A stretch of DNA of 64,000 bases from Chloroflexota bacterium (GCA_027310565.1 DAIDAP010000014.1:3727-67726), one strand, 5' to 3'; positions 250 through 54,644 are shown, counted from the stretch's first letter. The notes: generated by a model not told the origin, from the sequence alone. Numbers and translations are program-made.

Positions 250-490
250 CCGGGCTCTCGTGGGAGCCGTTCGGCGATTGATCGCCGACACGCTGATGAT
301 CGATGCCCCCGCCGATGACCTCGACATCGTCGAGGCCGGGCTCCTGGACTCGGCTGGGTTCATGGACCTTTTCCTCGCGCTCGAGAACGCCTTCTTGATT
401 CAGGTCGACGAGGCCGATCTCGTGCTCGACAACTTCCGCTGCGTGACACACATCGCGCGGTACGTGCATCGAAAGCGCTCCGGAACCTAG
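236..490 (+). CDS. acyl/peptidyl carrier protein (phosphopantetheine attachment site)
   Basis: ATG at 236. The roughly 84 aa product contains GLLDSAGFMDLFLALE, the DSL-type Ser motif of ACP/PCP four-helix carriers. It overlaps the upstream adenylation gene by 14 nt. Confidence 0.65.
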   Translation: MQSTDRALVGAVRRLIADTLMIDAPADDLDIVEAGLLDSAGFMDLFLALENAFLIQVDEADLVLDNFRCVTHIARYVHRKRSGT

Positions 491-505
491 CTTCGGCCGA
501 TCGTC

Positions 506-1609
506 GTGACCGCAACCCGAAAGACCTCTCGATCGCGCTCGATCTACGAGATCGCCGCATACCGACCCGAGGATCTCGATGAGGTTGCAGCGCTCCAAGA
601 ACTCCTGTGGCACGGCGGATCCCTCAACGAGGCTTATTTCGCTTGGAAGTACGAAGACAATCCCTACCTCGACGCGCGGTACGTCCTGCTGGCACGCGTG
701 CGACGTGAGCTGGTGGCCATGGTCGCGGCCTTCGGGGCAAGTTGGACCGTGGGGCGAACACGCTGCCTCCTACCTTGTCTGGCCGATACCGTGACTCGTC
801 CAGACCATGAGGGCGGTCCCGTCTTCGGATTGCTGCTGGAAGAACTTCGCGCCCGGCTCGCTCGCGACCGCATAGCCTGGCTCCTCGACTTCGGCGACCA
901 GCCCGCAAGTCCGGCGATGCTCATGCGCGGATGGCGTGCGGTAGGTCCGTGGGGCATCGCATCGCACCGACCGCCGGGCGCTGCGGAAGTGGGCGGAACA
1001 CTGCCCGAAGGTTTTCGCACCTCGGGCGAGCACTCGCAAACCCTGATCGAGGGCACGAGAAGTCTGACCGCAGACCTCTGGCCGTCGATCGAGCGCCTGA
1101 CAGTCGAGCAGGGGCGGTCCGATCGCGTCAGTCACGCGCGTGACGTTGAGTACCTTTCGTGGCGTGCACGCAATCCGCTGGCCACCTATCTGTACGTCAC
1201 GGCTCGCCGCGACGCAGCGCCGACGGCAGGAGGCCCCGTCGAGGGGTTCCTCGTGGTCCACCGATCGCGGATCGACCCGGACGCGCGCGGTCGTCCGACG
1301 CCGACGTCAATTGTCGACGTCGAGGCGACCAGCGACGTTGTCTTCCGCGATCTGCTCGAGGTGACGTTACGTCGGCTGCCGGCGGCGGACGTGCACGTTT
1401 GGACGCGGGACCTCGCGCAGCGACGCCAAGATCTACTGCTCGAGCTCGGGTTCAACATCGACTTACCCACGGGATCGCTGACTGCTGATCGACATCTACC
1501 GACGCTGCTCATCTGCAGTACTGGGGTGCCCCCGCCTGCGGGCTTCGATGAACTACAGCGGCCAGGACGCTGGGACGTACGCGGGGTGTGCGGTCGAAGT
1601 TGGCGATAG
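506..1609 (+). CDS. FemAB-like / GNAT-fold family protein (putative acyl- or aminoacyl-transferase), hypothetical
   Basis: 367 aa ORF directly downstream of the carrier protein. Its length and the motifs YEIAAY..WKYEDNPY resemble FemAB-related/CelD-like GNAT-fold proteins. I could not run a search, so the family assignment is by resemblance only. Confidence 0.45.
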   Translation: MTATRKTSRSRSIYEIAAYRPEDLDEVAALQELLWHGGSLNEAYFAWKYEDNPYLDARYVLLARVRRELVAMVAAFGASWTVGRTRCLLPCLADTVTRPDHEGGPVFGLLLEELRARLARDRIAWLLDFGDQPASPAMLMRGWRAVGPWGIASHRPPGAAEVGGTLPEGFRTSGEHSQTLIEGTRSLTADLWPSIERLTVEQGRSDRVSHARDVEYLSWRARNPLATYLYVTARRDAAPTAGGPVEGFLVVHRSRIDPDARGRPTPTSIVDVEATSDVVFRDLLEVTLRRLPAADVHVWTRDLAQRRQDLLLELGFNIDLPTGSLTADRHLPTLLICSTGVPPPAGFDELQRPGRWDVRGVCGRSWR

Positions 1610-1865
1610 CGCGGCGACGAGACGACACATATATAAGGAGTGCGTTGGTGGTCATCTTGTCTAAGCGCTTGTTTGACGGCCGCTTGACTACAGCTGACCC
1701 AATGGCTGCCGTGTGACCGAGGTCACGAGAGTTTACTGACTCGCGCCGGAGCCGGACGCCCGGTTCCTCACGTTCAGTAAGGAATACTCTTGGTAGTCCG
1801 AACTAGTCCGTAGGCGGCCAGGATGAGGAGGTAACGGGACCGTTGATCTCCGCTGCTTCGCATCC

Positions 1866-2641
1866 TTGCCGCTACGGTGTCGTGGACGCCGAGCCTTGAC
1901 GACGTACAAGGCGCCGTACGCGTCGTTCTACGACCGGTTCTATACGGGTTGGACGCGTGCGTTCGCCTCTCGGCTGGTGAGCTACATGGCCCCAGATCCC
2001 CCCGGCCGCGCACTCGATCTCTGCTGCGGCACGGGTGTCGCTACCGAGATCCTGGGTCGGAGTGGCTGGCGCATCCTTGGTGTCGATCACTCGCCGGCCA
2101 TGCTCGAGATCGCGCGTTGCCGTTTGGGCGACCTGGTCGATGCCGGGCACGTTTCGTTGAGCCAGGGGGACATCGAGGAGTTGCGAACCCCGGAGACGTA
2201 TACGTTGTGCGTCTGTTTAGATGGAAGTCTGAATCACCTGATTCGGTCGCGTCACTCGAGCGCGCGATCGCGGGAGTCAGTTCTTGCCTGGCCGCAGGAG
2301 GTGAATTCATCTTCGATCTGCTCGAGCCGGAGCACTTCAGGCACTGGCATCAACTGGCCGTCATCGACGAACCCGACCGGCTCGTAGTCAGGCATGGGGT
2401 TTGGGATGAGGAGGCGAAGCTCGGGCTTCTACGTATCTCCGGGTGGTTCACCCGCGACGACGCGTCGGTGCGCTTCGACCAGACGCTGCGCGGTCGGAGC
2501 TTCTTGCCGGCAGACGTCGTCGACCGATTGCGCAAGTGGAACTTCGAGCCGCGCGCCTTCGAACTTCAGGCGGGTCCGTGTTGTCCCTGGGATCCCGCCG
2601 GTACCTCGGGCCGTTCGCTGTATCGAGCCGTGAAGCGATAG
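1866..2641 (+). pseudogene. class I SAM-dependent methyltransferase, disrupted by a frameshift near 2240-2255
   Basis: ORF 1866..2387 carries the N-terminal methyltransferase motifs (LDLCCGTGVATEIL, GVDHSPAML, CLDGSLNHL). The expected continuation (SLERAIAGVSSCLAAGGEFIFDL...) is in a different frame, ORF 1877..2641, so one gene is split across two frames. Confidence 0.5.
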
Positions 2642-3138
2642 GTCCTCCGCGTTTGCGTACGACGCCTCGCGCAACTAACGGTCGCGGCGACGTGTGCGGA
2701 GTTGGGTGCCAAGGGAGATTCCGGCGCGCGAGCATCTGGTTTGAGAATGTACGTCGATAGCTCTCGGATCTGGTCCGGCCGATCGTCTCAACGGCAACCG
2801 CATACAGCATTCGGCGCCCAGACAGCGGTTCTTCCAGGGAGCCGCTGGCTGCAAACTGACTGGGCCGGCGGTGAAGCCGCGTGACCTGCATCGTACTTCG
2901 ATGCGCGCATCGCGGAGCCCGTTAGCCCTAGCTCACTGCTCGGGCCGATCGCCTCGATGATTGCCTCATTCTTGGACTCCCGCGCAAGCTCGACCAATAG
3001 ACAAGTGCGCGCCCGCGACACAGGCGTAGGCCAGCGCCGCTCCACGCGTTGAACGGAACCGGTACGACGCGTCCGGGCCGTGCTGCCGCTGCCTCAGCTC
3101 CGCACACGCTAACCCGAAGATCGCGGAGAAGTCAGGTG

Positions 3139-4389
3139 CTACGCCGCGACGCGTCGCCTCTCGGCCGGCGTTAGGAACCGCAGATACCGGCGGGTCATGT
3201 CGACGTTGGAGTGCCCGAGGGCATATTGGACCTCGAGCAAGTTCGTCCCTTGCTCGCGAAGCATGTTCGTCGCAGCCGTATGCCGGGTGCCATGAGTCGT
3301 GAACCCCTCTGGGTGCGCGCGCGACCGGTAGGTGATCCCAGCGCGGCGGCAGGTCTCGCGGAAGAATTCATGCATAAGGGCCGAGTGCTGCATGGGATTC
3401 CCGTTCACGGTCGGCCATACGAGGTTGAGCGGATTCCAGTCGTGCGTGGCGTAGGCCATCTGCACCTTGTGTTTCTCGGTCAGATGGGCCACTTCGGCGC
3501 TCGTGAGATCTAGAACACGGCGACTGGCTCGAGTCTTTAGTGCGACCAGTTCGAGTCCCTGGCCGGAGCCGCTGCAGCCACGCTGCACATTGGTGCCACG
3601 CCGGCGCTGAAGTTGTTGACGGATGTAGACGCGCCCGCCCGCGAGGTCGACGTTGTCCCAGGTCAGACCCAGCATTTCGCCCGCACGCGGACCACGTCGC
3701 AGCCCAAATTCCCAGAAGTACTCCATGTCAACGGCGATCCCAAGTCCGGCAGCGCGCTGCGCACGCTTGTGCGCATCCAGGTCGCGCGCTGCCTGAAGGA
3801 AGGCCGCTTCTTCCGTCTTGGTGAGGATCCGGGCGTCGAAGTCGTCTTCCCATCCGATCACCTCGACTTCAGCGAAGACGTTCTCCTTCAGCCGGACTCG
3901 CTTGTCCTTCATCGCCACGTTGAACATCGCTCGAGCGTTATCCCGGATGAGCTTGCGGGTTCCAGCTGCGTACGGCGCATCGATGCTCTCTTGAACCTCG
4001 GTCAAAAGCGTTTCGTTGATGAGCTCGTTGGCCTGGTCGAGCGTGAGCTCGCGCAGGCGAACATGGCCGAGATGCCGGATCACGGGTGCCAGCTTGTCCG
4101 CGCGGACCTGCTGGGTGTTCGCGCGCCCGACCTTCTTCGGGCGCCAGGCGGCCCCGTATTCGGCGATCGTAGGATTCCAGCGGCCATGAGCGATTTCACC
4201 CCCGGCCTCGCGTAGCTCAGCTGCTCTTGCTTCGACCGCGGCCTGCGCGTGGTCTTCGGTCGCGAAGTAGCCGACGTGAATGCGGGGGCCGCTGCCCCAG
4301 CGCAGTTGCGCCCGATAACGATCGCCGACCTGGTTGATCGATCCCGTGTGATTGCGCGCCCGTCCGGCCTTGCGTCGTCGAGTCATCAT
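3139..4389 (-). CDS. tyrosine-type site-specific recombinase / phage integrase
   Basis: 416 aa. The C-terminal catalytic region reads HGTRHTAATNMLREQG...LGHSNVDMTRRY (the R..H..R..Y tyrosine-recombinase signature). Its start overlaps the stop of the upstream HTH gene (ATGA). Confidence 0.85.
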   Translation of the reverse strand: MMTRRRKAGRARNHTGSINQVGDRYRAQLRWGSGPRIHVGYFATEDHAQAAVEARAAELREAGGEIAHGRWNPTIAEYGAAWRPKKVGRANTQQVRADKLAPVIRHLGHVRLRELTLDQANELINETLLTEVQESIDAPYAAGTRKLIRDNARAMFNVAMKDKRVRLKENVFAEVEVIGWEDDFDARILTKTEEAAFLQAARDLDAHKRAQRAAGLGIAVDMEYFWEFGLRRGPRAGEMLGLTWDNVDLAGGRVYIRQQLQRRRGTNVQRGCSGSGQGLELVALKTRASRRVLDLTSAEVAHLTEKHKVQMAYATHDWNPLNLVWPTVNGNPMQHSALMHEFFRETCRRAGITYRSRAHPEGFTTHGTRHTAATNMLREQGTNLLEVQYALGHSNVDMTRRYLRFLTPAERRRVAA

Positions 4390-4730
4390 CGCTTCACCGT
4401 CCTCACCACTCGTTCTCTTCGAAGTCGCTCGCGGAGTTGTTCGATCTCACCGGGGTCAAACCGCCGGCAGCTATCGATGAACACGGGCTTGAGCAACCCG
4501 GCGGCGACCATCTCGTCGAGCTTGGTCTCGCCGATCTGCAGCGCCCGCATCACGTCGTCTTCGGTCGCGAGAAGCTGACCCATGGGGAGCCAGGACGCCG
4601 TCTGTGTCGCCGACACCGTGGTCGCCTGACGCCCGCCGCGATGTGAGGCCTTGCTGGCTTCGAGCTCCCGCACGACCTCGTATGCGATTGCCCGCAGCTG
4701 CCGCCGCTGCTCGCTGGTGAACTGGTCCAT
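4386..4730 (-). CDS. excisionase-like / helix-turn-helix DNA-binding protein
   Basis: 114 aa starting at MDQFTSEQRR. The C-terminal half (MGQLLATEDDVMRALQIGETKLDEMVAAGLLKPVFI) resembles excisionase/MerR-type HTH domains. It is translationally coupled to the integrase. The longer track ORF 4386..5285 runs through a tRNA gene, so I reject the extension. Confidence 0.55.
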   Translation of the reverse strand: MDQFTSEQRRQLRAIAYEVVRELEASKASHRGGRQATTVSATQTASWLPMGQLLATEDDVMRALQIGETKLDEMVAAGLLKPVFIDSCRRFDPGEIEQLRERLRRERVVRTVKR

Positions 4731-4872
4731 GGGAGCGTGGTGGGCTGTAAATGACGCTCCGAGTGGGGGAGAATCGAAGATTGAAACCGTGGTGCCATTC
4801 CTGGTGCCAATCTCCCGGGTCGCAGCGGGTCCGGGCGGGTCGGCGCGTGTAACCAGGTGCCAGGATTTCCTC

Positions 4873-4959
4873 GGAGGGGTGGCAGAGCGGTCGAATGCGG
4901 CGGTCTTGAAAACCGCTGAGGCCTCCGGGCCTCCGTGGGTTCGAATCCCACCCCCTCCG
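4873..4959 (+). tRNA. tRNA-Ser (anticodon TGA)
   Basis: GGAGGGG acceptor pairs with CCCCTCC. Anticodon stem GCGGT/ACCGC encloses loop CTTGAAA, giving anticodon TGA. There is a long variable arm (GAGGCC-TCCG-GGCCTC) and T-arm GTGGG-TTCGAAT-CCCAC. No encoded CCA. Confidence 0.85.
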
Positions 4960-5018
4960 CATTTTGTTGGGGTTTTCGCGCGTTCCGCGGTCGCGTGAAT
5001 CGAGCAGCGCAGTCTCGT

Positions 5019-5060
5019 ACAGCCAACGTACAGCCAACGGGTCGTGACAAGGCGGGACTT
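5019..5060 (+). repeat. copy A of a roughly 45-nt motif containing tandem GTACAGCCAACG units, downstream of tRNA-Ser
   Basis: gtacagccaacgtacagccaacgggtcgtgacaaggcgggac. Two further copies are at 11631-11690 and 11870-11915. Confidence 0.5.
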
Positions 5061-5077
5061 CTCGTGACGAGTCGGGG

Positions 5078-5455
5078 TCAGGGCTCGAGTGCATCGAGCA
5101 TGCGGTTGAGCTCGGCCTGCATCTCCGCGATCGTCCGCCGAAGCAGTCTGACCTTCTCCCAGGACGGCCCATTCGTGGACGCGCGATGGGGGCGAGCAGT
5201 GCCTGACGCCGTCGGAACGAGCCAGGGCGTCAGGCAAACCGAGCAGAGAAGGCGTTCCTTCGTCTGACCTTGTTCCGCGGCCCACTCCTCGAAGACTTTC
5301 TTCTCGGCCGCGAGCTCGTCAGGGTCTCCGCGGGCCTCGGCGCGCGCGAGCGCGAGTTCATGGCGCGCCTGATCCTCAGCCGTGATCGTACAGACCACGT
5401 AAGTTGTCGAGATCATCTGCAGCCCGCTGCCACGGCAACGCGGGTAGCTTGGCAC
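5078..5455 (-). CDS. hypothetical protein
   Basis: 125 aa ORF with plausible composition and no family I recognise. It sits between the tRNA and the HNH gene. Confidence 0.3.
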   Translation of the reverse strand: MPSYPRCRGSGLQMISTTYVVCTITAEDQARHELALARAEARGDPDELAAEKKVFEEWAAEQGQTKERLLCSVCLTPWLVPTASGTARPHRASTNGPSWEKVRLLRRTIAEMQAELNRMLDALEP

Positions 5456-5470
5456 TTCTGGCCTAAATGG

Positions 5471-6313
5471 CTACGCGTCGGGCTCGCGCAAGAAGGCCTC
5501 CACGTCCGCGCGCAGTTGCTTCGCGCGAAGGCGAAGCTCTTCGACTCGGAGTAGCCGTTCGGCGTCGAGTCGGCTCTCGGGCGTGGTCACGACGTGCTGG
5601 AATTTCTCCGCGTACTCACGAAGCCGGGCGATGCGCGCGGCAACGTCCTGAGCACCGGCTGCGTCCGGACTCTTCGCTGCGCGCTGAGTCAGCCATTCCT
5701 CGTAGGGCTTGCTGTGCTTGGAATCGTTGCAGGGTTGGCAGGCGGGGACCATATTGCCGAGGACCGTCTCGCCGCCCCGTGCGACCGGCACGAGGTGTTC
5801 CCACAACGTGACCTTCTCGCTACCACAGAAGACGCACGTCAGGGGTTCGCCGAAGAAAGCCAAAGCGCGATCGACTTCGGGCATCCTGAAGGCGCGACGT
5901 CCGAGGCCCTCTTGGATCGCACGCTCGAGATAGCCGAACGCAAACGAAGGGGTCATTCGGCCTGGAACCTTTGGACCGTGTGTCTTGATCGTGCTCTTGC
6001 TCGTAGCGCGACGGAGAGGTTCCCCATTGAATGCTCCAATCCTGCCGTCTGTTCCACGCACGGTTCCAGGTCGGCGATCGTCCCCTCCGAGCCATTCGAA
6101 ACGACATCCGTTGGTCCAGGTCTTCAGGGCGGCGCGGTCGCCCGCCAGCCGTCGTGCACGGAACGTCGGAGCTGGATTGGCGCCCTGCCTTTCGAGTTCG
6201 GCATCCGCGTGTTCCGCCTCTTGAGCCGTTCGAGCGAGATCCCAAGCTGGCCGGCCGGCGGCCACGCAGCGCGAAACGACGAAGCCTCGCAGCGATTGAC
6301 TCGCCATCGTCAC
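5471..6313 (-). CDS. HNH endonuclease domain protein
   Basis: The C-terminal half contains CVFCGSEKVTLWEHLVPVARGGETVLGNMVPACQPCNDSKH, which is the HNH ββα-metal motif (C..C....H....N....C..C..N..H). Confidence 0.65.
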   Translation of the reverse strand: MTMASQSLRGFVVSRCVAAGRPAWDLARTAQEAEHADAELERQGANPAPTFRARRLAGDRAALKTWTNGCRFEWLGGDDRRPGTVRGTDGRIGAFNGEPLRRATSKSTIKTHGPKVPGRMTPSFAFGYLERAIQEGLGRRAFRMPEVDRALAFFGEPLTCVFCGSEKVTLWEHLVPVARGGETVLGNMVPACQPCNDSKHSKPYEEWLTQRAAKSPDAAGAQDVAARIARLREYAEKFQHVVTTPESRLDAERLLRVEELRLRAKQLRADVEAFLREPDA

Positions 6314-6504
6314 CCCAGCCTCCTTGTCGTGCCCAGCTCCGTAATGCAGGTTGACGTGAACCCGCTCGCTTGCGGGGGGGGGTCCGTTTCTAGACTTCTG
6401 GTGTCTTGTTGGTCTTCATCTCCCACAACCACGCTCAGAAGATTCTGGCGCGAAGCCTGGCAATGTCGCTTGCATCGCTGGGAGAGGGTGTCTGGATCGA
6501 GTCG

Positions 6505-6738
6505 CTATGGGCCAGCGCGCACACGGGTCTGCCATCGCCGCAAAGCGACACCCGACCAAATCAGCTCGACCACACCGAACGGCCAAGCGCCTTGGAGAAA
6601 TCCGTAAGCTGCCGCGGCGACGCACGCCGCCGCGAAGCCGATGACGAAGGCAGGAGAGCGTGACTCGAACGCGTACGTCACGAGCATCGACGTCACCGCG
6701 ACGATCCCGTAGCCCGTCAGTAGATCCATCGAGGCCAA
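6505..6738 (-). CDS. small hydrophobic (two-TM) hypothetical protein
   Basis: 77 aa with two clear hydrophobic stretches. The annotation is from composition only. Confidence 0.3.
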   Translation of the reverse strand: MASMDLLTGYGIVAVTSMLVTYAFESRSPAFVIGFAAACVAAAAYGFLQGAWPFGVVELIWSGVALRRWQTRVRAGP

Positions 6739-6778
6739 TCCATTTGGGCCGAACGAAGGAGGTTCGGCCGTAGCTCAC

Positions 6779-7072
6779 CTACCTGAGATCGTCCTGATCC
6801 CTTCTAGCGTCCGGCCACGAGAAGCGCACAACGCACGCTTCGCCGTGATCGACGTCGAGGCAGAAGCCGTAGTAGCGGGCCAGACGCCTTGCGAGCGCGA
6901 AGAATGGCAGCACCTGGTCCGGATGGACGTGGCACTGGGAGGTGATCGATCGAGCCATGAACGGCGGCATCTTTGCGAGGGTCCCAGCGGCGTGCTCGAG
7001 CTGATCCGCAGCGTCATCGTCCAGGCCGTCCTCATCGACGAGCGCCTGGAACCCTACGTCGAGCTCGTCCAT
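6779..7072 (-). CDS. hypothetical acidic protein
   Basis: 97 aa ORF rich in D/E, between the small membrane ORF and the response regulator. No recognised family. Confidence 0.25.
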   Translation of the reverse strand: MDELDVGFQALVDEDGLDDDAADQLEHAAGTLAKMPPFMARSITSQCHVHPDQVLPFFALARRLARYYGFCLDVDHGEACVVRFSWPDARRDQDDLR

Positions 7073-7138
7073 GCATCCGGTCTAGGCGATGAATCTCAAC
7101 TGCCCCTCAACACGAACGCGTGACTCCTCAATGCGTCC

Positions 7139-7858
7139 TTACAGAACGGCCGTGCTCCCAGCATCACGAGCCAGCAGCCGATAGCCGACGCCGGACTCGG
7201 TCTGGAGATAGCGGCCGTGGCGTGCGTCCGGCTCGAGCTTGCGCCGCAGGCGCGCGACGTAGACGTGGAGGTAGTGCGCTTCGGACCCCGCCTCCGGTCC
7301 CCAGACCGCCTCGAGCAGCATGCGCGCGGTCAGCACCCGGTTCGGATTGCGGATGAAGACCCGCAGCAGCTCGAACTCTGTCCGCGTCAGTCGCACCTCG
7401 CGCCCACCGACGGTGACGATCCGGCTCTCGAGGTCCACCGCGAGCTCGCCCGTACGGAAGATGGGAGCGGCGCCCGTCGCGGGTCGGGCCGCGTGCCGCA
7501 GCACGACCCGGACGCGCGCGAGAAGCTCTTCGACGCTGAACGGCTTGGTCAGGTAATCGTCCGCCCCGAGGTCGAGCGCCTTGACCTTGTCTTGGTCAGC
7601 CCCGCGCGCCGACAGCACGATGACCGGCGTCTGCGACTCCTGGCGCAGCGCGCGGACCACCGTGAACCCGTCGGCGTCCGGGAGGCCGAGGTCCAGGATC
7701 ACGACGTCCGGGTGATTCGAGCGGTAGGAGCTGAGCGCTGCTGCCGAGCTTTGCGCCGCGTCGACCTGGAAATCGTGGCCTCGGAGGTTGCGCTCGAGCG
7801 AGCGCAGGATGGCGGGATCGTCGTCGATCACGAGGATGCGCGCGCCGCGCTCGCTCAT
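7139..7858 (-). CDS. OmpR/KdpE-family two-component response regulator
   Basis: Receiver domain (ILVIDDDPAILRSL...DLGLPDADG...KPF) plus a winged-helix output domain (LTRTEFELLRVFIRNPNRVLTARMLLEAVWG...YVARLRRKLE). The start overlaps the kinase stop (ATGA). Confidence 0.85.
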   Translation of the reverse strand: MSERGARILVIDDDPAILRSLERNLRGHDFQVDAAQSSAAALSSYRSNHPDVVILDLGLPDADGFTVVRALRQESQTPVIVLSARGADQDKVKALDLGADDYLTKPFSVEELLARVRVVLRHAARPATGAAPIFRTGELAVDLESRIVTVGGREVRLTRTEFELLRVFIRNPNRVLTARMLLEAVWGPEAGSEAHYLHVYVARLRRKLEPDARHGRYLQTESGVGYRLLARDAGSTAVL

Positions 7859-9444
7859 CCCGCGCGCTCGATCAGCGGCTCGTCGCGCGCAGGCGCCGCC
7901 GTCGGCGCCGGGAGCGAGAAGAGAAACCGCGCACCACCGCCCTGGCGGTTCTCGACCCAGATCCTTCCGCGGTGCGCCTCGACCAGGCCCTTTGCCACGG
8001 CGAGGCCCAGGCCGAGGCCGCTGCCCCGCGGTCCGAGGCCCGCGACACGGTAGAAGGGCTCGAACACGCGCGGGATTTCCTCGGGCGGCACGCCCGGTCC
8101 CCGGTCGGCGACCTCCACCACAACCTCCGACCCCTCGCGCCAGCAGCTGACCTCGACCGACTTGCCGGCGGGGGCATACTTCACGGCGTTCTCGATCAGG
8201 TTGGTGAGGACCTGGTCGATCTCGCTGAAATCGAGCAAGACGGGTGGCAGGTCGTCTTCGATTCGTAGGGTGATCGCGTTGCCGAGGCGCTCGACGACGT
8301 CGGCGATGAGCCCGCCGAGGTCGCGCAGCTCGCGGTCCGGCCGCAGCGCGCCGCCTTCGATTCGCGAGAGGTCGAGCAGGTTGCCGACGATGCGGTTGAG
8401 CCGCTCGGTCTGCTGCTCGATGGCCATCGCGAACTCCTCACGGTCCTCATCGGTCCACGGGACGTCGTGCTGGCGCAGGCTTCCGGCGGAGGCGAGGATC
8501 GAGGCGAGGGGGGTGCGCAGGTCGTGGGAGACCGCATTGAGCAGCGCCGACTTCAGTTCGTTGGCCTGACGCAGCAGCGCCGCATCAGTCGCGGCCTGCT
8601 GGCCCTCTGCGCGCTGCACCAGGATTCCCAGCTGCGTCGCGATGACCCCGAGGAAGCGGTTCTCCAGCTGCCCGAAGCGCGAGCCAGACGAGTCGCGTAC
8701 CAGGGTCAGCCGTCCGACAAGGCGCTGGTCGACCTGGATCGGGACCTCGTAGCGGCGCCAGGAGCCCATCGCTTCAAACGCGGGCGCCCGATTGGGCGGC
8801 ATGATCTTGATCCAGCGCCCGGTCGAGCCCGACGCGCCGTTCGTTGGCCGCTGGCCGAGGTTCATGACCTCGGTGGCTCGAGCGGAGTGCGGGCTCAGGA
8901 CGGCGGCCGCGTCCGTATCGCCCGCGACTGTGGTCTGGGCGCGTGCGCCGATCGACAGGGCGATGCCTACCGCGTTGACGTGGAGCTCGCTTCGGATCCG
9001 CTCGGCCAGCGTCTGAAGCGCGACCTCCGTCTCGGGTGCACTCATGAGCCGCAGCGTGTCGAAGAGCAAAACCGCCTCGCGCTCACGACGTTCCGCCTGC
9101 TGGGCTCGCAGTCGTTCGCGCGCGGCGAGTTGACCGGTGATGATTGCGGTGACGAGGAACAGCACGAGCGATAGCCACTCCTCTGGATCTGCGACCGTGA
9201 GCGTGTGATACGGGACGACGAAGAACCAATCGAAGATGAGGAACGCTGCGAGCGACGCGAAGATCGCCGGACCCGGGCCCAGACGTGTCGCGGTGGCCAG
9301 GATGACGATCAGGTAGAGCATCGAGATGTTCGCGATGGCGCGGCTCTCGAGCACCAAGCCGATCGCCACGCTGATCAGGCCGACCGCGACGAGCGCTATG
9401 AGGTAGCGCGGCAGGTGTGTGAACAGCGAGCGCAACTCGGCCAT
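7855..9444 (-). CDS. sensor histidine kinase, KdpD C-terminal-like (TM + GAF-like + HisKA + HATPase) lacking the KdpD N-terminal domains
   Basis: Start at MAELRSLFTHLPRY (ATG revcomp at 9442-9444). It has four hydrophobic helices, the H-box SHDLRTPL, and N/G boxes (LIENAVKYAP, DRGPGVP, GSGLGLGLA). The track ORF extends to 10665, but that part is antisense to the permease gene and I reject it. Confidence 0.8.
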   Translation of the reverse strand: MAELRSLFTHLPRYLIALVAVGLISVAIGLVLESRAIANISMLYLIVILATATRLGPGPAIFASLAAFLIFDWFFVVPYHTLTVADPEEWLSLVLFLVTAIITGQLAARERLRAQQAERREREAVLLFDTLRLMSAPETEVALQTLAERIRSELHVNAVGIALSIGARAQTTVAGDTDAAAVLSPHSARATEVMNLGQRPTNGASGSTGRWIKIMPPNRAPAFEAMGSWRRYEVPIQVDQRLVGRLTLVRDSSGSRFGQLENRFLGVIATQLGILVQRAEGQQAATDAALLRQANELKSALLNAVSHDLRTPLASILASAGSLRQHDVPWTDEDREEFAMAIEQQTERLNRIVGNLLDLSRIEGGALRPDRELRDLGGLIADVVERLGNAITLRIEDDLPPVLLDFSEIDQVLTNLIENAVKYAPAGKSVEVSCWREGSEVVVEVADRGPGVPPEEIPRVFEPFYRVAGLGPRGSGLGLGLAVAKGLVEAHRGRIWVENRQGGGARFLFSLPAPTAAPARDEPLIERAG

Positions 9445-9564
9445 TGATCCGAAGTCTCTCACCGGGCGCAGTGATCCCGAGCGTGCTCGCTTGTAGAGGA
9501 TTTGTTGAGCCGGCGCCTCGCATTTGTGAGCGGGACATGAGAACCGAGCGACAAACTGGGAGCG

Positions 9565-11622
9565 ATGGCCGAACGGCGCGAGGTGCCCGATCTCCCTGAT
9601 TTCGTTGAGCGCCGTGAGCAACAGGGCAGCCGCCCCGGCAACCGCTACGTGCGCATTGTTCGGCCGTCCCAGCGTGAGTTCACCCGCGTCGGCCCAGGCC
9701 ACGTCGTGGCGAGCGAAGCAGTGCTGGCGCCGCGTACGCCGCTCGGGCGCGTCGGCGACCGGATCCGCCAGTTCCTGTTCGGCTCGCGGATCGCGACCGC
9801 TCGCGAGATCCATGAGCGCATCGGCGTGTTCAAGGGCCTTGCGGTCTTCGCCTCGGACAACATCTCGTCCTCGGCGTACGCGACCGAAGAGATCATGCGC
9901 GTACTGGTGCTCGCGGGCGCTGGCGCGCTCACGCTCACCATGCCGATCACGATCGCGATCGTGGCGGTCCTCGGGATCGTGGTCGCGAGCTACCAGCAGA
10001 CCATCCGCGCTTACCCCAACGGCGGCGGCTCGTACATCGTCGCCAGCGACAACCTCGGCCCGGCCGCGGGGCTGACGGCCGGCGCGGCGCTGCTCACCGA
10101 CTATGTCCTGACCGTCGCGGTCTCGATCGCTGCCGGTGTCGCGGCGCTGACCTCGATCGCCCCCGAGCTCTTCGACTATCGCGTCTTGCTTGGCGTCGCG
10201 TTCGTTGCGCTCCTGGGCCTGGGGAACCTCCGCGGGATTCGGGAGAGCGCGACGCTCTTCTCGATCCCGACGTACGTGTACCTGGTCGCCATCTTCGGTC
10301 TGCTCGGCTACGGCCTCTTTCGTCTTGTCACAGGCGACCTTCCGGCGTACCAAGCGCCGCCATCTTGGAGTCAGACCGAGGGCGCCCAGGCGCTCGGCCT
10401 GGTGCTCATCCTGCGCGCGTTCGCCTCGGGTTCGGTCGCGCTCACCGGGACGGAGGCCGTCTCGAACGGAGTGCCCGCGTTCAAGCCACCGGAGTGGAGA
10501 CATGCGCAGGTCGTGCTGATCCTGATGGGCACCTTCTTCGGCGCGATCTTCCTGGGCATGAGCTTCCTCGCCGGGCAGATCGGGATCCTGCCCGACCCGA
10601 GCGAGCAGGAGACCGTGGTGAGCCAGCTCACCGCGCTGCTCGTTGGCGCGGGCTCGCCCTACCACTACCTCGTGCAGATCTCGACCGCGCTGCTCCTTGT
10701 GCTCGCCGCGAACACCGCCTTCGCCGACTTCCCGCGACTATCGAGCATCCTCGCGCGCGACGGCTTCATGCCGCGCCAGTTCTCCTACCGCGGCGATCGC
10801 TTGGCCTTCAGCATCGGGATCATCGCTCTGGCGCTGCTCGCGATCGTGCTGATAGTGGCCTTCGGCGGCAGCGTCACCAACCTCATTCCGCTGTACACGG
10901 TCGGCGTCTTCGTCGCCTTCACCCTGAGCCAGGCCGGCATGGTGCGCCACTGGTGGAAGCTGCGGCGGACCGAGCGAGGCTGGCGCACACGGGCGGCGTT
11001 CAACGGGGTCGGGGCCGTGGCGACCGGTGTGGTCGCGATCATCGTCAGCGAGGCCAAGTTCGCGCTCGGCGCGTGGATGATCATCGTGCTCATACCGGCG
11101 CTGATCGCGGTGATGTGGGGCATCCATCACCACTACCGCAGCGTCCGCGATGCGCTGGTCCTTGAGCGTCCCGACACGCCACTGCCGACGCTGGCTCCGC
11201 GCGTCGTCGTGCCGGTGAGCCGCCTCGATTACGCGACGCTGTACGCGTTGGCGTTCGCCCGCGCAATCTCGCCCGAGGCGATCGCGGTCCACGTCAGCGA
11301 GAGTCCGGAAGAAGCCGCGGAGATGCGAGGCCGCTGGGAGCGCTGGAACGGACCGGTGCCGCTGGCCATCGTCGAGTCGCCGTATCGGGTCTTGATCGCG
11401 CCACTCGTTGCCTACCTGGATGCCCTCGACAAGCAGCAGCCGGGGCGCCCGACAACCGTGGTGCTGGCGGAGTTCGTGCCGCGACACGTCTGGGAGTACG
11501 TCCTCCACAACCAGTCGTCGCTGCGACTGAAGCTACGGCTCTTCTTCAGGCGCAACACCGTCGTCGTGGACGTGCCGTATCACCTGGACGGGGTCGAACG
11601 GGCTAAGCCGCCGACGTCATAG
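9565..11622 (+). CDS. APC-superfamily (amino acid/polyamine/organocation-type) permease with a long cytoplasmic C-terminal domain
   Basis: 685 aa with about 12 hydrophobic segments starting after FASDNISSSAYATEEIMRVL, and a roughly 180 aa soluble C-terminus. It is divergent from the kinase operon. Confidence 0.75.
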   Translation: MAERREVPDLPDFVERREQQGSRPGNRYVRIVRPSQREFTRVGPGHVVASEAVLAPRTPLGRVGDRIRQFLFGSRIATAREIHERIGVFKGLAVFASDNISSSAYATEEIMRVLVLAGAGALTLTMPITIAIVAVLGIVVASYQQTIRAYPNGGGSYIVASDNLGPAAGLTAGAALLTDYVLTVAVSIAAGVAALTSIAPELFDYRVLLGVAFVALLGLGNLRGIRESATLFSIPTYVYLVAIFGLLGYGLFRLVTGDLPAYQAPPSWSQTEGAQALGLVLILRAFASGSVALTGTEAVSNGVPAFKPPEWRHAQVVLILMGTFFGAIFLGMSFLAGQIGILPDPSEQETVVSQLTALLVGAGSPYHYLVQISTALLLVLAANTAFADFPRLSSILARDGFMPRQFSYRGDRLAFSIGIIALALLAIVLIVAFGGSVTNLIPLYTVGVFVAFTLSQAGMVRHWWKLRRTERGWRTRAAFNGVGAVATGVVAIIVSEAKFALGAWMIIVLIPALIAVMWGIHHHYRSVRDALVLERPDTPLPTLAPRVVVPVSRLDYATLYALAFARAISPEAIAVHVSESPEEAAEMRGRWERWNGPVPLAIVESPYRVLIAPLVAYLDALDKQQPGRPTTVVLAEFVPRHVWEYVLHNQSSLRLKLRLFFRRNTVVVDVPYHLDGVERAKPPTS

Positions 11623-11630
11623 GCTCGGTC

Positions 11631-11690
11631 TGTACAGCCACGTGTCCAGCCAACGGGTCGGTATGAGCCGGTACGAGGCGGGACGGGCCG
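11631..11690 (+). repeat. copy B of the GTACAGCCAACG-containing motif (degenerate, with an internal duplication)
   Basis: gtacagccacgtgtccagccaacgggtcggtatgagccggtacgaggcgggacgggccgggacg. It matches copies A and C in the blocks cagccaacgggtcgg and gcgggac. Confidence 0.45.
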
Positions 11691-11757
11691 GGACGACGAA
11701 CTCGGACAACGTTCGAGAACACTCGAAATCGCTAAGGTTCGCGAAGGCCACACGCCA

Positions 11758-11813
11758 TCTTGGAAACCGCTGAAGCCGCAAGGCTTCCGTGGGTTCGAAT
11801 CCCACCCCCTCCG
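11758..11813 (+). repeat. partial tRNA-Ser 3' half (anticodon-loop to acceptor end), direct repeat of the 3' half of tRNA-Ser at 4873-4959; candidate att-site remnant
   Basis: cttggaaaccgctgaagccgcaaggcttccgtgggttcgaatcccaccccctccg matches the tRNA from the anticodon loop to the discriminator. The variable arm carries compensatory changes (GAAGCC/GGCTTC versus GAGGCC/GGCCTC). No 5' acceptor strand or D arm is present upstream. Confidence 0.55.
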
Positions 11814-11869
11814 CATTTTGCCCGTCAGTGCGCGCGTTTCGCGGCCGCGTTAGCTGAATGGCGCGGTCT

Positions 11870-11915
11870 TGTACAGGCAACGTACAGCCAACGGGTCGGG
11901 ATGAAGCGGGACGAG
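11870..11915 (+). repeat. copy C of the GTACAGCCAACG-containing motif
   Basis: gtacaggcaacgtacagccaacgggtcgggatgaagcgggacgag, nearly identical to copy A. Confidence 0.5.
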
Positions 11916-11922
11916 TCGCTCC

Positions 11923-13185
11923 TCACTCACCGAAGCGGGTCCGGCGGAAGAGCGCGAGCCCGAGCAGGCCGGCGAGCGCGAGCAGCGTGCCGCCGCTCCA
12001 GAAGAGGGGCTCGATCCCGAAGCGGTCGACGAAGACCCCTCCGATTGCGAGCGACAGCAGGGTGAAGATGCTCCAGTCCATGTCCAGGAGCGTGAAGACG
12101 CGGCCGCGCACCGCGTCCGGGATGGCCCCCTGGATCGTGGAGTTGAAGACGACCATCCCGGTCGAGGTGTTCAAACCGTAGATGAAGAGGATGGCGAGGG
12201 CGATCGGCAGCGGCGTGAACACGGCGATGAGCACGTCGCCGATGCCGCGGATGAGGTACGGCACGAAGAGCCAGCGAGCGCTGCGGTGGTCGCGCGCGAG
12301 GGCGTTGGGGATCAAGGGACCCAGGAGCGCGCCGACGCCGATCGCGCCGATGAGGGTGGCGAAGCCTTCGGGCGGCAGCCGCAGGTGGCGCTCCGAGAGG
12401 ACCACGAGCATCGCGCCGGTCGCCCCGACCGCGAAAGCCGCGAGCGACTGCACCAGCAATAGCCGCGAGACGAAGGCATCCCGCGCCGCGTAGGAGAGGC
12501 CGCGGCGCAGGTCCACCCAGAAACGCCGGAGCGCGCCGCCGGCGTCGCCGCCCGCCACCGGCGCCTGGCGGGGGATCCGCAGCAGCGCGATGAGCGCCGC
12601 CGAGGCGACGAAGCTCGCGGCGTTCAGGGCGAACGCCGCGCTCGTCCCGACGAGGGCGAGGATCCCCGCGGCGACGGAGGCGCCGACGATCTGAACGAGC
12701 TGTGCGGTCGACCAGCTGACCGAGTTCGCCGCGAGACGCTGCCGCTCCGTCGTGAGCGCAGGAAGGACCGCGTTCACCGTGGGGTTGAAGAAGACCCCGG
12801 CGGCGGAGAGCCCCGCGGCGACGAGGTAGGCGTGCCAGACGCCCTGCGGCCACACCAGCGAGAGCGCGAGCGCGCCACGGACGAGGTCGGCGCCGATGAG
12901 GACGCCCTTTCGGCTGAAGCGGTCGATGACCACGCCCGCGACCGGGCCCAAGGCGAGCACCGGGATCGTCTCGGTGGCGACGAGGCCGGCGACGGCGAGG
13001 CCCTGGCCCGAGAGCTCGAACACGAGCACGACGAGCGCGATGTAGTGGAGGGTGTCGCCGAAGTTGGAGATGAGCTGACCGAGCCACAGCGGGAAGTAGC
13101 GGCGGCTGCGCGCGACCGCGCTGTAGTCGGCGACCACCGAAGCGACGCGGCGCGGCAGGGAGAGCCCGGTCGGCGCTTCACTCAC
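11923..13185 (-). CDS. MFS transporter (EntS/enterobactin-exporter-like family)
   Basis: 420 aa with about 12 TM segments. The N-terminus (YFPLWLGQLISNFGDTLHYIAL) is typical of MFS_3/EntS-like transporters. Confidence 0.75.
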   Translation of the reverse strand: MSEAPTGLSLPRRVASVVADYSAVARSRRYFPLWLGQLISNFGDTLHYIALVVLVFELSGQGLAVAGLVATETIPVLALGPVAGVVIDRFSRKGVLIGADLVRGALALSLVWPQGVWHAYLVAAGLSAAGVFFNPTVNAVLPALTTERQRLAANSVSWSTAQLVQIVGASVAAGILALVGTSAAFALNAASFVASAALIALLRIPRQAPVAGGDAGGALRRFWVDLRRGLSYAARDAFVSRLLLVQSLAAFAVGATGAMLVVLSERHLRLPPEGFATLIGAIGVGALLGPLIPNALARDHRSARWLFVPYLIRGIGDVLIAVFTPLPIALAILFIYGLNTSTGMVVFNSTIQGAIPDAVRGRVFTLLDMDWSIFTLLSLAIGGVFVDRFGIEPLFWSGGTLLALAGLLGLALFRRTRFGE

Positions 13186-26543: not shown

Positions 26544-26635
26544 GGGGAGGTCGCATAGAGGCCTAGTGCGCGGGTTTGCTAAACCCGTAAGGATGCCGTA
26601 AGGCGCCTTCGAGGGTTCGAATCCCTCCCTCCCCG
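26544..26635 (+). tRNA. tRNA-Ser (anticodon GCT)
   Basis: GGGGAGG acceptor pairs with CCTCCCC. Anticodon stem CGGGT/ACCCG encloses loop TTGCTAA, giving anticodon GCT. Long variable arm, T-arm GAGGG-TTCGAAT-CCCTC, discriminator G. Confidence 0.85.
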
Positions 26636-26698
26636 CCGTGTGAGCGCAACCCGCTTCTCCGGCCGGTATCCGGGCTGTGCGAGCCCGTCGTTCCCTCG

Positions 26699-54529: not shown

Positions 54530-54549
54530 CGGTCACCATCGGTGTCGAC

Positions 54550-54623: not shown

Positions 54624-54644
54624 CCGATCAGCCGGACCGCTCCG

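Follow-up and report, generated by a model that had tools for sequence, protein, structure and literature searches.

Williams reportedly distinguished, in 2002, a sublocation class of elements in which the crossover falls in the anticodon loop of the target tRNA gene. Mycobacteriophage L5 and the pSAM2-type elements of actinomycetes are examples of anticodon-loop crossover. The attP sites of lambda and L5 contain arm-type sites for Int as well as phased sites for Xis. The CIME elements of Streptococcus thermophilus are integrase-less remnants that can be mobilised in cis. In the Islander collection, 3760 of the 3919 islands are associated with a 3' tDNA fragment and 159 with a 5' fragment (Hudson, Lau and Williams, PMC4383910), and tandem arrays of islands at a single tDNA are treated in the same paper and in PMC7192596. 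Both 5'-tDNA-fragment islands and tandem arrays are already catalogued; the locus described here is instructive and overturns nothing.

The window (the whole 64-kb stretch of DNA that was analysed) comes from a soil Chloroflexota genome of the Limnocylindria-like kind and contains one intact copy of tRNA-Ser(TGA). Mobile elements appear to have attached to this gene from either side, each time with the crossover in the 7-nt anticodon loop, a reading to which we assign a probability of roughly 0.75. The features of the locus are collected in Table 1, and other contigs are referred to by L numbers. Positions 1-12000 have a GC content of 64-68% and the rest of the window 70-77%, with a step up at about 12000. 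The earlier note had confined the low GC to two gaps (1610-1870 and 2640-3140), which is too narrow. The MFS gene just beyond the truncated arm forms the right boundary of the island cluster, and its homologues bear the names Candidatus Limnocylindria or Chloroflexota. No empty site was recovered, the related contigs anchored by the MFS gene not being syntenic, and a scan of assembled genome contigs returned distant integrases only.

Table 1. Features of the tRNA-Ser(TGA) locus (positions in the window).
Feature	Position	Strand	Basis or remark
Left-island cargo	1-3138	.	GC 64-65% vs 70-77% in host part; sequence shared with L009
Carrier protein, C-terminal part	13-249	+	
367-aa protein, weak GNAT match	506-1609	+	
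Frameshifted SAM methyltransferase	1866-2641	+	Methyltransf_25
Tyrosine integrase, 416 aa	3139-4389	-	Pfam Phage_integrase PF00589 E=1.1e-19; phrog_1 E=1e-42
Excisionase-like HTH gene, 114 aa	4386-4730	-	HTH_17 E=0.0039; phrog_66 E=0.0027
Putative P arm, left island	4731-4872	+	Conserved repeats and layout
Intact tRNA-Ser(TGA)	4873-4960	+	ARAGORN; Rfam tRNA 59.9 bits
P' arm, right island	4961-5075	+	77-81% identical downstream of tRNA-Ser(TGA) in other contigs
125-aa ORF	5078-5455	-	Low-GC cargo
HNH endonuclease	5471-6313	-	Pfam HNH E=3.4e-7; phrog_2118 E=8e-16
Small ORFs	6416-7072	-	No family match
KdpE-like response regulator	7139-7858	-	Best NCBIfam match KdpE, 220 bits, cut-off 325
Short KdpD-like histidine kinase	7855-9444	-	Aligns to KdpD residues 403-885
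KimA-type K+ transporter	9565-11622	+	PDB 6S3K E=3.5e-134
P arm, right island	11628-11757	+	83-88% identical upstream of partial tRNA copies elsewhere
Displaced tRNA-Ser 3' part, anticodon loop to 3' end	11758-11813	+	Sequence repeat
Truncated second P' arm	11814-11915	+	Diverges from family consensus after second CGGGACGA repeat
MFS transporter gene	11923-13185	-	Pfam MFS_1 and MFS_3; start of host-like DNA, 72-75% GC

ARAGORN and Rfam agree that the tRNA-Ser(TGA) gene, noticed earlier as complete, is so, with the coordinates given in Table 1. The second, like-oriented copy of its 3' part is also real: a 29-mer that spans the T arm and the acceptor stem occurs exactly twice in the 64-kb window (0 expected). 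The description of this copy as lacking a 5' half holds as well, since neither program calls it as a tRNA and the 36 nt upstream of it resemble a tRNA 5' half no more than shuffled sequence does (z=-0.15). A second tRNA-Ser 5' half is absent from the window and from the 3.6 kb to its left. The repeat was previously taken to consist of the tRNA 3' half only. It is longer, covering 155 nt (4904-5058 vs 11758-11912, 81% identical), and runs about 100 nt past the tRNA 3' end. This extension contains the tandem motif GTACAGCCAAC twice, and a further copy of the tandem motif lies at 11632-11654, giving three matches in the window vs 0.1 expected.

The identity between the two copies starts at 4904/11758, at the anticodon loop, which places the crossover in this loop and not at the tRNA 3' end, as had been supposed. 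The identity block thus has its boundary in a loop that is flanked by the symmetric anticodon stem. Displaced halves in other contigs behave in the same manner: the 3' fragments start at T/CTTGAAA (window 11758, L024, L061 and others), and the 5' fragments stop inside the loop, at CTTG, CTTGAAA or CTTGAAAAC. The loop itself reads CTTGAAA in the intact gene vs CTTGGAA in the displaced 3' part. The variable arm differs too, with GAAGCC/GGCTTC in the displaced copy, the commonest form among metagenome copies of tRNA-Ser(TGA), and the rare GAGGCC/GGCCTC in the intact gene, found also in L116. The earlier note regarded this difference as atypical. It is to be expected, because a crossover in the loop takes everything 3' of it from the incoming element, and the same compensatory variation is seen across dozens of metagenome copies. 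The intact tRNA is therefore read as a chimaera in which 4873-4904 derive from a left island and 4912-4960 from a right island, with the loop (4905-4911) read as the crossover region.

On the right side, the segment of 6.85 kb between the two loop copies is flanked by sequences that recur in other contigs. The P' arm, which directly follows the tRNA, has two GTACAGCCAAC repeats at 5017-5038 and then CGGGAC-type repeats. It is shared with at least six contigs, L015, L120, L122, L041, L059 and L091, at the identities in Table 1, and the similarity ends about 111 nt after the tRNA. The P arm at the other end comprises GTACAGCCAC and GTCCAGCCAAC (11632-11654), three CGG(G/T)ACG repeats and a spacer of about 55 nt, which is no more like a tRNA 5' half than shuffled sequence. 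This arm matches five independent metagenome contigs (L024, L061, L062, L063 and L078) as given in Table 1 and L047 at 74%, the similarity stopping at the first repeat. Each arm thus has two GTACAGCCA repeats and three CGGGAC repeats, and for both arms the similarity stops at the arm edge while the interiors differ among contigs. These alignments show the flanks of the segment to be the conserved P' and P arms of a tRNA-Ser(TGA)-specific element family, which bears out the suggestion that the segment is the footprint of an insertion in a tRNA gene.

The low-GC part of the cargo of this segment (5078-7072) includes the HNH endonuclease gene that had been placed between the copies, now supported by Pfam and PHROG matches (Table 1). 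The supposed APC permease is a KimA-type K+ transporter instead. The kinase was called a truncated KdpD-like protein. It is KdpD-like, with a DUF4118-GAF-HisKA-HATPase_c domain order (Pfam), and the N-terminal domains of KdpD are missing; nothing shows that the gene itself has been truncated. Together with the KdpE-like regulator, the kinase and the transporter form a potassium module (7139-11622) that is carried as cargo of the right island.

An integrase is not part of this cargo: in 4961-11760 there is no Phage_integrase ORF and no tblastn remnant at E<=10. Elsewhere (L120/L041/L059, L122 and L061), P' arms of this kind are followed by integrase remnants after 0.6-1.6 kb. The stretch 4905-11758 has the configuration by which Islander recognises islands, an intact tDNA with a cognate 3' fragment downstream in the same orientation. 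Because the integrase that Islander expects inside the island is missing, the stretch counts as a remnant or integrase-less derivative and not as a complete island. The one-base loop difference between its ends should block excision. With no integrase and a mismatched loop, the right element looks like a fossil, a fixed remnant.

Directly to the right of the displaced tRNA part, the truncated P' arm carries GTACAGGCAAC and GTACAGCCAAC at 11871-11892 and is the remnant of an older element. Positions 11628-11915 as a whole form a P-core-P' junction like those of tandem arrays, and the same junctions are present in L024, L032, L061, L063 and L078. The remaining 52 kb of the window contain no further arm motif or tRNA fragment.

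The earlier note had also considered that the locus could be a rearranged tandem tRNA-Ser array. In a fuller form of this reading, chromosomal tRNA-Ser genes in tandem would have been rearranged or partly deleted, with the integrase as a mere neighbour. Two 3' copies in the same orientation would fit this, and their compensatory differences imply that both were once functional. However, the intact gene has the only 5' half found in the window and the adjoining 3.6 kb on the left, and the partial copy shows no vestige of one. Both flanks match mobile-element attachment arms that surround unrelated interiors in many contigs, GC throughout the region falls 5-10 points below that of the host DNA in the window, and the integrase is linked to tRNA-Ser(TGA) in six other contigs. 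An array of this origin is hardly credible.

On the left side of the tRNA lie the integrase and excisionase-like genes. The identification of the former as a tyrosine integrase is confirmed (71.3 bits to PF00589 vs a cut-off of 27.1; E values in Table 1). Residues R235, K285, H366, R369 and Y402 are invariant in an alignment of four relatives; the catalytic roles (R, K, HxxR and the Tyr nucleophile) were given to them by eye. At E<=1e-30, only 8 clusters among 1.84 billion representatives match this protein, which belongs to a small, undescribed lineage. The upstream gene was proposed to be a coupled HTH/excisionase-like gene. The coupling stands, the ORF overlapping the integrase start by 4 nt (4386-4389). 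The excisionase part is less firm: the HTH_17 match (17.9 bits) lies under the 27-bit Pfam cut-off, and the match to phrog_66 ('excisionase and transcriptional regulator') is weak. The equivalent ORF of L023 passes the Pfam threshold (HTH_17 E=1.6e-7, 31.9 bits), and that of L137 is annotated HTH_17. The start position of the ORF is kept in L006 and L007, and the overlap is also found in L006, L136, L023 and L139; in L137 the HTH gene is upstream of the integrase with no overlap.

Relatives of this integrase are found in six other contigs beside paired GGTGCCA repeats upstream of tRNA-Ser(TGA), namely L006 (74% identity to the integrase of the window), L136 (49%), L137 (42%), L023 (38%), L139 (36%) and L001/L002, the last being the same sequence as the window. 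In the window and all six, the integrase module lies beside the 5' side of an intact tDNA, and it directly abuts that side in five of the six. The order integrase, excisionase, GGTGCCA pair and tRNA-Ser 5' end is shared by L006, L136, L137 and L023. The same parts recur in L139, where about 600 additional nt separate xis from the repeats; this contig continues through the tRNA, which is flanked on either side by integrase-bearing DNA. Sequence beyond the integrase, away from the tRNA, is available for all but L139, which ends just past its integrase, and the cargo is unrelated where visible: NRPS/transketolase genes in L006, CBASS in L136 and sigma-factor/HTH genes in L137. These relatives uphold the alternative, favoured by the earlier note, that the integrase and excisionase genes belong to a second element on the left.

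In the window, the cargo of this left island includes the methyltransferase gene, which is frameshifted as the earlier note had it. The Methyltransf_25 match of the ORF 1866-2387 breaks off at profile position 79/97, and an independent assembly has the same sequence, with a single mismatch over 4899 nt. Contig L009, the same sequence again, reaches window position -3614, so that the cargo runs at least 3.6 kb past the window edge. The additional genes of L009 encode an adenylation enzyme (TIGR01733, 361 bits), a carrier protein and proteins of 625 and 69 aa that match no known function.

The putative P arm of the left island, between the excisionase-like gene and the tRNA, has two TGGTGCCA repeats (4790-4797 and 4802-4809), followed by three CGGGTC repeats with a 10-nt period (4816-4821, 4826-4831 and 4836-4841) and then 31 nt to the tRNA. 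In layout and in distance to the loop it resembles the P arm at 11632-11757. No variation in the GGTGCCA pair is seen among the window, L006, L136, L023 and L116, and L137 and L139 have the pair too. The promoters of the tRNA and the xis-int pair must likewise lie within 4731-4872. The repeats are probably binding sites for Int or Xis. Alternatively, the two TGGTGCCA and three CGGGTC repeats could be native regulatory sites in the tRNA-Ser promoter region: repeat pairs are found at the same distance upstream of almost all metagenome copies of tRNA-Ser(TGA), some of them near ordinary-looking genes and with a conserved promoter-like CCTATGTTTATTG box. We consider this unlikely, as the repeat sequence varies between contigs and is constant within the integrase lineage of the window, and L014 and L044, which have a different integrase type in common, share a GCTACA-type repeat. 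In the attP-like sites of L134, L135 and the GTACAG family, moreover, one and the same motif recurs on both sides of the core, which is typical of arm-type sites.

An integrase on the 5' side of an intact tRNA is explained if the left island replaces the 5' half of the gene. By analogy, this island most likely belongs to that known minority type, because displaced 5' halves and viral attP sites with a 5' half exist in related contigs. In L116, L015 and L074, a full tRNA is preceded, at 1.9-5.6 kb, by a displaced 5' half that stops in the loop; L116 has the GGTGCCA pair as in the window and no integrase. In the IMG/VR viral contigs L134 and L135, the tRNA-Ser 5' half and loop stand beside an integrase gene with matching tandem repeats on both sides; these are attP-like sites that bear a 5' half. 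For the far end of the left island, no second 5' half or TGGTGCCA pair was found within 8.5 kb in the genome of the window (L009), nor within 15 kb in L136, 13.6 kb in L023, 11.7 kb in L006 and 8.9 kb in L137. Since the left end was not found, 5'-half replacement for this integrase lineage rests on L116 and on analogy with the other contigs.

The left island might otherwise bear a complete tRNA-Ser as attachment site or cargo, in which case a second full tRNA-Ser and no displaced 5' fragment would be expected at its left end. This agrees with the lack of a displaced 5' half in every contig of this integrase lineage and with L116, which shares both the rare GAGGCC/GGCCTC arm and the TGGTGCCA repeats and has two full tRNA-Ser(TGA) genes. 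However, L116 also has its 5' half stopping in the loop, 1.9 kb upstream of the tRNA that is preceded by TGGTGCCA, and the viral attP-like sites hold the 5' half and loop only. In the window, the sequence 3' of the loop runs unbroken into the GTACAG-type P' arm of the other family. A whole-tRNA island thus seems improbable to us.

Less probable still is that both sides belong to one system, with the integrase and excisionase genes as the recombination module of the 6.85-kb segment, located just outside it and mobilising it in trans. No other intact integrase lies close to the two loop copies, the protein is 40% identical over its last 85 residues (322-406, C-terminal) to the integrase remnants by GTACAG-type arms, and the common layout of the two arm types means that the integrases may share core-site specificity. 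The arm repeats nevertheless differ, TGGTGCCA standing beside the integrase in every relative and GTACAGCCA occurring in the P as well as the P' arm of the segment. Wherever cargo is visible in this integrase lineage, it varies and is on the tRNA-distal side. GTACAG-type arms elsewhere have integrase remnants on the 3' side. In addition, the loop mismatch should block recombination between attL and attR.

With two separate islands as the preferred reading, the following history can be proposed. Both crossovers would have occurred in the anticodon loop (7 nt), between the two strands of its symmetric stem. To the right of the 6.85-kb element there would once have been an older member of its family, since lost by a deletion that reaches the 3' end of the MFS gene. 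The right element (4905-11758), from a widespread tRNA-Ser(TGA)-specific family, would have integrated in the usual way, bringing its own tRNA sequence from loop to 3' end and pushing the previous 3' part to 11758-11813. Without an integrase it would have become fixed, now carrying the KimA/KdpD-like/KdpE-like module and the HNH nuclease gene. The left island, reaching from past the window edge to 4904, would be a separate, 5'-half-replacing element with its own integrase and excisionase-like gene. Its right end would consist of the xis promoter, the two TGGTGCCA and three CGGGTC repeats, the tRNA promoter and the tRNA 5' half. On integration, the 5' half of the island would have been joined to the 3' half already in place, and the promoter and 5' half that had stood there would have moved to the far left end of the island, outside the window. 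The order of the insertion events is one that we infer, and the left island is probably still mobile.

A wider scheme can be put forward tentatively, as more doubtful than not. Related element families of opposite polarity might share the 7-nt loop of tRNA-Ser(TGA), some replacing the 5' half and promoter and others the 3' half, so that a working gene could be wholly element-derived and the tandem-repeat promoter region of nearly every copy would be a former attachment arm. The integrase lineage of the L044 type may switch polarity.

The locus is a clear example of how far mobile DNA can rebuild a tRNA gene. The expressed tRNA-Ser(TGA) is read as a patchwork, with the promoter and 5' half from one island and the 3' half from another that has since decayed. 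The paired GGTGCCA and paired GTACAGCCA repeats provide signatures for two attachment-site families in the poorly studied Limnocylindria, and a potassium-uptake module (KimA and a short KdpD/KdpE pair) is seen here as island cargo. For island-finding pipelines, an integrase on the 'wrong' side of the tRNA or a repeat-bounded segment with no integrase need not be an error.

Compared to the 5'-tDNA-fragment islands of Islander (PMC4383910), the left island likewise has its integrase module 5' of an intact tRNA to which it would supply the 5' part, and the fragment boundary is in the anticodon loop, as seen in related contigs. It differs in that the far-end 5' fragment would lie outside the window and the integrase comes from a small undescribed lineage. 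As in classical loop-crossover elements, the right segment is bounded by the intact tRNA on one side and by a like-oriented, displaced 3' part on the other, and each flank bears an arm of about 110-130 nt with tandem repeats. Unlike these elements, it has no integrase, the loop is mismatched between its ends, and the cargo is for potassium transport and sensing instead of phage or conjugation functions. The P-core-P' junction at 11628-11915, between an integrase-less element and the stump of another, corresponds to tandem arrays and CIME elements. In contrast to other arrays, the one found here spreads from the intact tRNA to the left as well as to the right, because a single loop serves elements of both polarities. 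As judged from the sequence, the arms may further be likened to the attP of lambda and L5, with two direct repeats about 105-125 nt from the core and then, towards the core, three repeats with a 10-nt period, and with int and xis adjoining the arm. The putative P arm of the left island differs from these in also holding a working tRNA promoter and the tRNA 5' half.

The tRNA-Ser(TGA) gene of the window is intact, and further downstream a second copy runs from the anticodon loop to the 3' end (table). The latter was not called as a tRNA by ARAGORN or Rfam, and the 29-mer covering T-arm and acceptor occurs exactly twice in the window, where 0 occurrences are expected by chance. A decayed tRNA 5' half in the 36-nt spacer upstream of the partial copy could be ruled out, as the similarity there does not exceed that of shuffled sequence (z=-0.15). 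The partial copy is thus real and devoid of a 5' half, and the observation of the earlier note (a tRNA-Ser gene with an int/xis pair and such a copy) therefore stands. The repeat that it had described is also real, but its extent had to be revised: it measures 155 nt (4904-5058 versus 11758-11912, 81% identical) and reaches about 100 nt beyond the tRNA 3' end. It contains a tandem GTACAGCCAAC pair, of which a third copy is located at 11632-11654, upstream of the partial tRNA (three matches versus 0.1 expected). Sub-threshold Rfam matches to sX4 and, on the antisense strand, to Plastid-psbI-rps4 overlap the tRNA-Ser sequence at 4862-5049, 4908-4959 and 11762-11813; these are most likely due to the tRNA-derived content of those models. 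A sigma-70 promoter and terminator scan of 4650-5150, a simple scan that is not informative for this phylum, found nothing.

Features of the tRNA-Ser(TGA) locus, of the compared contigs and of the remaining window (L-numbers denote metagenome or viral contigs; all other coordinates are window positions)
Feature	Coordinates	Strand	Remarks
tRNA-Ser(tga), intact	4873-4960	+	ARAGORN; Rfam 59.9 bits
Second tRNA copy, anticodon loop to 3' end	11758-11813		
Second P' arm, truncated	11814-11915		ends after its second CGGGACGA repeat, at the MFS stop codon
Tyrosine integrase, 416 aa	3139-4389	-	Pfam Phage_integrase E=1.1e-19; phrog_1 E=1e-42
xis-like gene, 114 aa	4386-4730	-	its end overlaps the integrase start by 4 nt
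attP-like site, L134	323-352	-	GTGACCA tandem repeats on both sides
attP-like site, L135	9425-9454	+	AGCCA-type tandem repeats on both sides
Left-island cargo, window			adenylation enzyme, carrier protein, methyltransferase
Cargo, L006			NRPS, transketolase and glycosyltransferase genes
Cargo, L136			CBASS defence system and DUF4011 helicase
Cargo, L137			sigma-factor and HTH genes
tRNA-Ser(gct)	26544-26637		
tRNA-Arg(gcg)	54456-54530		
tRNA-Arg(tcg)	54550-54625		

The anticodon loops of the two copies are unlike, with CTTGAAA at 4905-4911 and CTTGGAA at 11759-11765. The divergence of the variable arms, previously regarded as atypical, is to be expected. Among metagenome copies this arm also varies by paired changes (GAAGCC/GGCTTC, GAGGGC/GCTCTC, GGAGCC/GGCTCC and GAGGCC/GGCCTC), and the partial copy of the window bears the commonest of these forms. 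With the crossover located in the loop, whatever lies 3' of it in the intact gene came from the incoming element. The two copies thus differ as expected for a tRNA part with two functional lineages, and there is no anomaly.

On the 5' side of the tRNA, the integrase residues R235, K285, H366, R369 and Y402 show no variation among relatives. The matches of the xis-like gene are weak (HTH_17, E=0.0039; phrog_66, E=0.0027); its counterpart in the related contig L023 lies above the Pfam threshold. An exhaustive search of 1.84 billion representatives revealed a small integrase lineage, with 124 proteins at E<=1e-10 and just 8 at E<=1e-30. Six related contigs could be compared: L001/L002, which represent the window sequence, and those with an integrase identity of 74% (L006), 49% (L136/L007), 42% (L137), 38% (L023) and 36% (L139). 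In all six, two GGTGCCA repeats are located where the xis-int module faces the 5' end of the tRNA-Ser(TGA) gene. Five contigs show a direct succession of integrase, xis-like gene, GGTGCCA repeats, a second set of three or four repeats at 10-nt intervals, and tRNA; in L139 about 600 nt extra separate xis from the GGTGCCA repeats. The cargo on the integrase side away from the tRNA is different in every contig where it is visible (L139 stops just past its integrase). A fixed module position relative to the tRNA combined with changing cargo is the signature of an island that ends at the tRNA, here on its 5' side. Of the alternatives weighed in the earlier note, its preferred one, in which int/xis belong to a second element on the left, is hence the right one.

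Between xis and the tRNA of the window there are two repeats at 4790-4809 and three repeats with a 10-nt period at 4816-4841, the loop following after about 60 nt. The spacer thereby has the same layout and loop distance as the P arm at 11632-11757, except that here the last 60 nt or so include the tRNA 5' half. On this likeness 4731-4904 is taken to be the left island's P arm. We infer that Int and Xis would bind at the arm repeats. Positions 57-76 and 4826-4845 match in inverted orientation over 20 nt, which was regarded as coincidental (E about 0.1-0.3). As for the cargo (1-2641 in the window; 1-3615 in contig L009), the adenylation enzyme is a stand-alone one (TIGR01733), the carrier protein is small and the SAM methyltransferase is frameshifted. 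Proteins of 625 and 367 aa, with no or weak family matches only, are also encoded. Together, the cargo may constitute a small amino-acyl transfer pathway.

The proposed replacement of the tRNA 5' half by an island has counterparts elsewhere. Displaced tRNA-Ser 5' halves with their own upstream region were found in three metagenome contigs (L074, L116 and L015), 1.9-5.6 kb upstream of the full tRNA, and all end within the loop (GGTCTTG, GGTCTTGAAA or GGTCTTGAAAAC). The same GGTGCCA pair as in the window stands before the full tRNA of L116. The displaced half, a hipA toxin gene and the full tRNA-Ser(TGA) behind its GGTGCCA repeats lie on one strand of this contig (434-3881), and a second, divergent tRNA-Ser(TGA) follows on the same strand 1.4 kb beyond. 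Two IMG/VR viral contigs, L134 and L135 (41 and 45 kb), contain only a tRNA-Ser 5' half with a CGA-type loop, and in each a 487-504-aa integrase gene reads toward the attP-like site. A 5' half with flanking repeats and an adjoining integrase corresponds to an attP layout. In searches of viral contigs, no relative of the window integrase came up, nor did the GTACAG motif or the 44-nt tRNA stretch that starts at the 5' end and includes the anticodon stem-loop. Displacement of a 5' tDNA fragment is a known minority type: Islander lists 159 such islands, whereas 3760 have a 3' fragment (PMC4383910).

The left end of the island lies outside the window. Logan contigs reach 3.6 kb further left, with no att features at their ends. 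The far end of L136 (15.1 kb, the 49%-identical relative) was considered as the other att site and ruled out, as an unrelated integrase fragment is located there. This 62-aa C-terminal fragment (284-472) hints that older decayed elements are stacked on the 5' side too. Within 8.5 to 15 kb, no contig of the integrase lineage contains a second 5' half or a second TGGTGCCA pair. This absence would also suit an island that carries the whole tRNA-Ser gene instead of replacing its 5' half. Next to the displaced halves that end within the loop, such a whole-gene island appears improbable, and replacement of the 5' half is the preferred reading.

At almost every metagenome tRNA-Ser(TGA) (L014-L133), a tandem pair of 8-10-nt repeats is found at the same distance upstream (60-90 nt; window 4790-4809). 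The motif varies by contig (TGGCATCA, GCTACA, GCTGTCA, GTCGTCA, GGTGCCA and others), is recurrent within the integrase lineage of the window, and in its GCTACA-type form is common to two L044-type contigs. Either most of these upstream regions once served as island arms, or the repeats are a native feature, perhaps of the promoter, that was copied by the islands. The L044-type integrases form one lineage (46-74% among members: L044 7229-8476, L014 46-666 and L131, reverse-complement 221-1351). They read toward the full tRNA-Ser in L044 and L014, and toward the partial 3' copy in L131. From these orientations, close integrase relatives may use the loop with either polarity.

The right island comprises the 6.85-kb segment (4905-11758) between the intact tRNA and the partial copy. 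Scanning JGI metagenome contigs with the 29-mer yielded 120 loci, about 46 of which bear the same tRNA-Ser(TGA). A partial copy like that of the window was present in seven contigs (L024, L032, L047, L061, L062, L063 and L078). In six of the seven, window 11628-11757 was matched upstream of this copy (83-88% in L024, L061, L062, L063 and L078; 74% in L047); L032 begins just 25 nt before the loop, so that the upstream arm is not comparable there. The similarity starts exactly at the GTACAGCCA pair and stops at the loop in these six contigs. On the other side, window 4961-5071 is 73-81% identical to the ~110 nt downstream of the full tRNA in at least six contigs (L015, L041, L059, L091, L120 and L122, with a weaker match in L035), after which the sequences diverge. 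Each arm consists of two GTACAGCCA repeats and three CGGGAC-type repeats, and the interiors of different element copies are unrelated to one another. Both flanks of the segment are therefore attachment arms, P' and P, that belong to a single element family.

In other contigs with P' arms of this kind, integrase traces that converge on the tRNA were detected 0.6-1.6 kb further downstream, without exception degenerate. L120, L041 and L059 retain C-terminal fragments, L122 shows the gene in two reading frames, and L061 has fragments in two frames. An ORF of L120 (8872-9981) that had been considered as the integrase of the GTACAG-type elements proved spurious, as it has no Pfam match; the true traces are the fragments and frameshifted copies. 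In the right segment of the window no integrase trace was found. Excision by tyrosine recombinases should be prevented when the two overlap regions do not match. Because of the CTTGAAA/CTTGGAA loop mismatch, the right segment is read as a fixed, integrase-less remnant. Moreover, the P arm, the partial tRNA and the truncated P' arm make up a P-core-P' junction such as tandem insertions leave behind, and the same junction occurs in L024, L032, L061, L063 and L078. As the remaining 52 kb of the window contain no further arm motif and no tRNA fragment, the older element to the right of the truncated arm must have been deleted.

The right island carries a coherent potassium module (7139-11622), in which a KimA-type transporter gene is divergent from a KdpD-like kinase gene, followed by a KdpE-like regulator. 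Near this module no kdpFABC genes were found. The earlier label APC permease is corrected here, as the protein is a potassium transporter of the KimA type (E=3.5e-134 to PDB 6S3K). The kinase is a short DUF4118-GAF-HisKA-HATPase_c protein that can be aligned to KdpD residues 403-885 and is devoid of the KdpD N-terminal domains; nothing shows the gene truncation that had been proposed. KdpE is the best match of the response regulator, in agreement with its earlier naming.

Two low-GC gaps (1610-1870 and 2640-3140) had been pointed out on the left. Their GC is indeed low, but the feature is not confined to them: GC is 64-68% throughout 1-12000 versus 70-77% in the remaining window. The low-GC DNA is a single unbroken block that ends at about 11915, where the MFS gene starts. 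Homologues of this gene carry the names Candidatus Limnocylindria or Chloroflexota. Its C-terminus reads ...RFGE in the window (11915-11930) versus ...RFRG in the 94%-identical homologue of contig L011 (11200-11290), so that the truncated P' arm adjoins the MFS gene right where its 3' end lies. The L011 homologue lies in non-syntenic surroundings and adjoins an rve transposase gene. An empty site was found neither via the MFS gene, whose nearest homologues (94% in L011, 76% in L012) lack both an adjacent tRNA and synteny, nor by searching genome contigs with the window integrase, which returned only distant Bdellovibrionota-type recombinases.

The metagenome contig L139 also spans the tRNA, with int/xis of the window type on the 5' side and an intact 365-aa integrase plus two HTH_17 genes on the 3' side. 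It provides a second case, so that occupation of tRNA-Ser(TGA) from both sides is not peculiar to the window. The tRNA-Ser(TGA) of L139 (1-6844) has a different D arm, and a MauJ-domain protein is also encoded on its 3' side. The components of the locus are all of known kinds: an island replacing the 5' half, a decayed tRNA-integrated element of the anticodon-loop class and the stump of a tandem array. Their combination makes a neat case; the integrase lineage and both att families had not been described before, but they too belong to known kinds.
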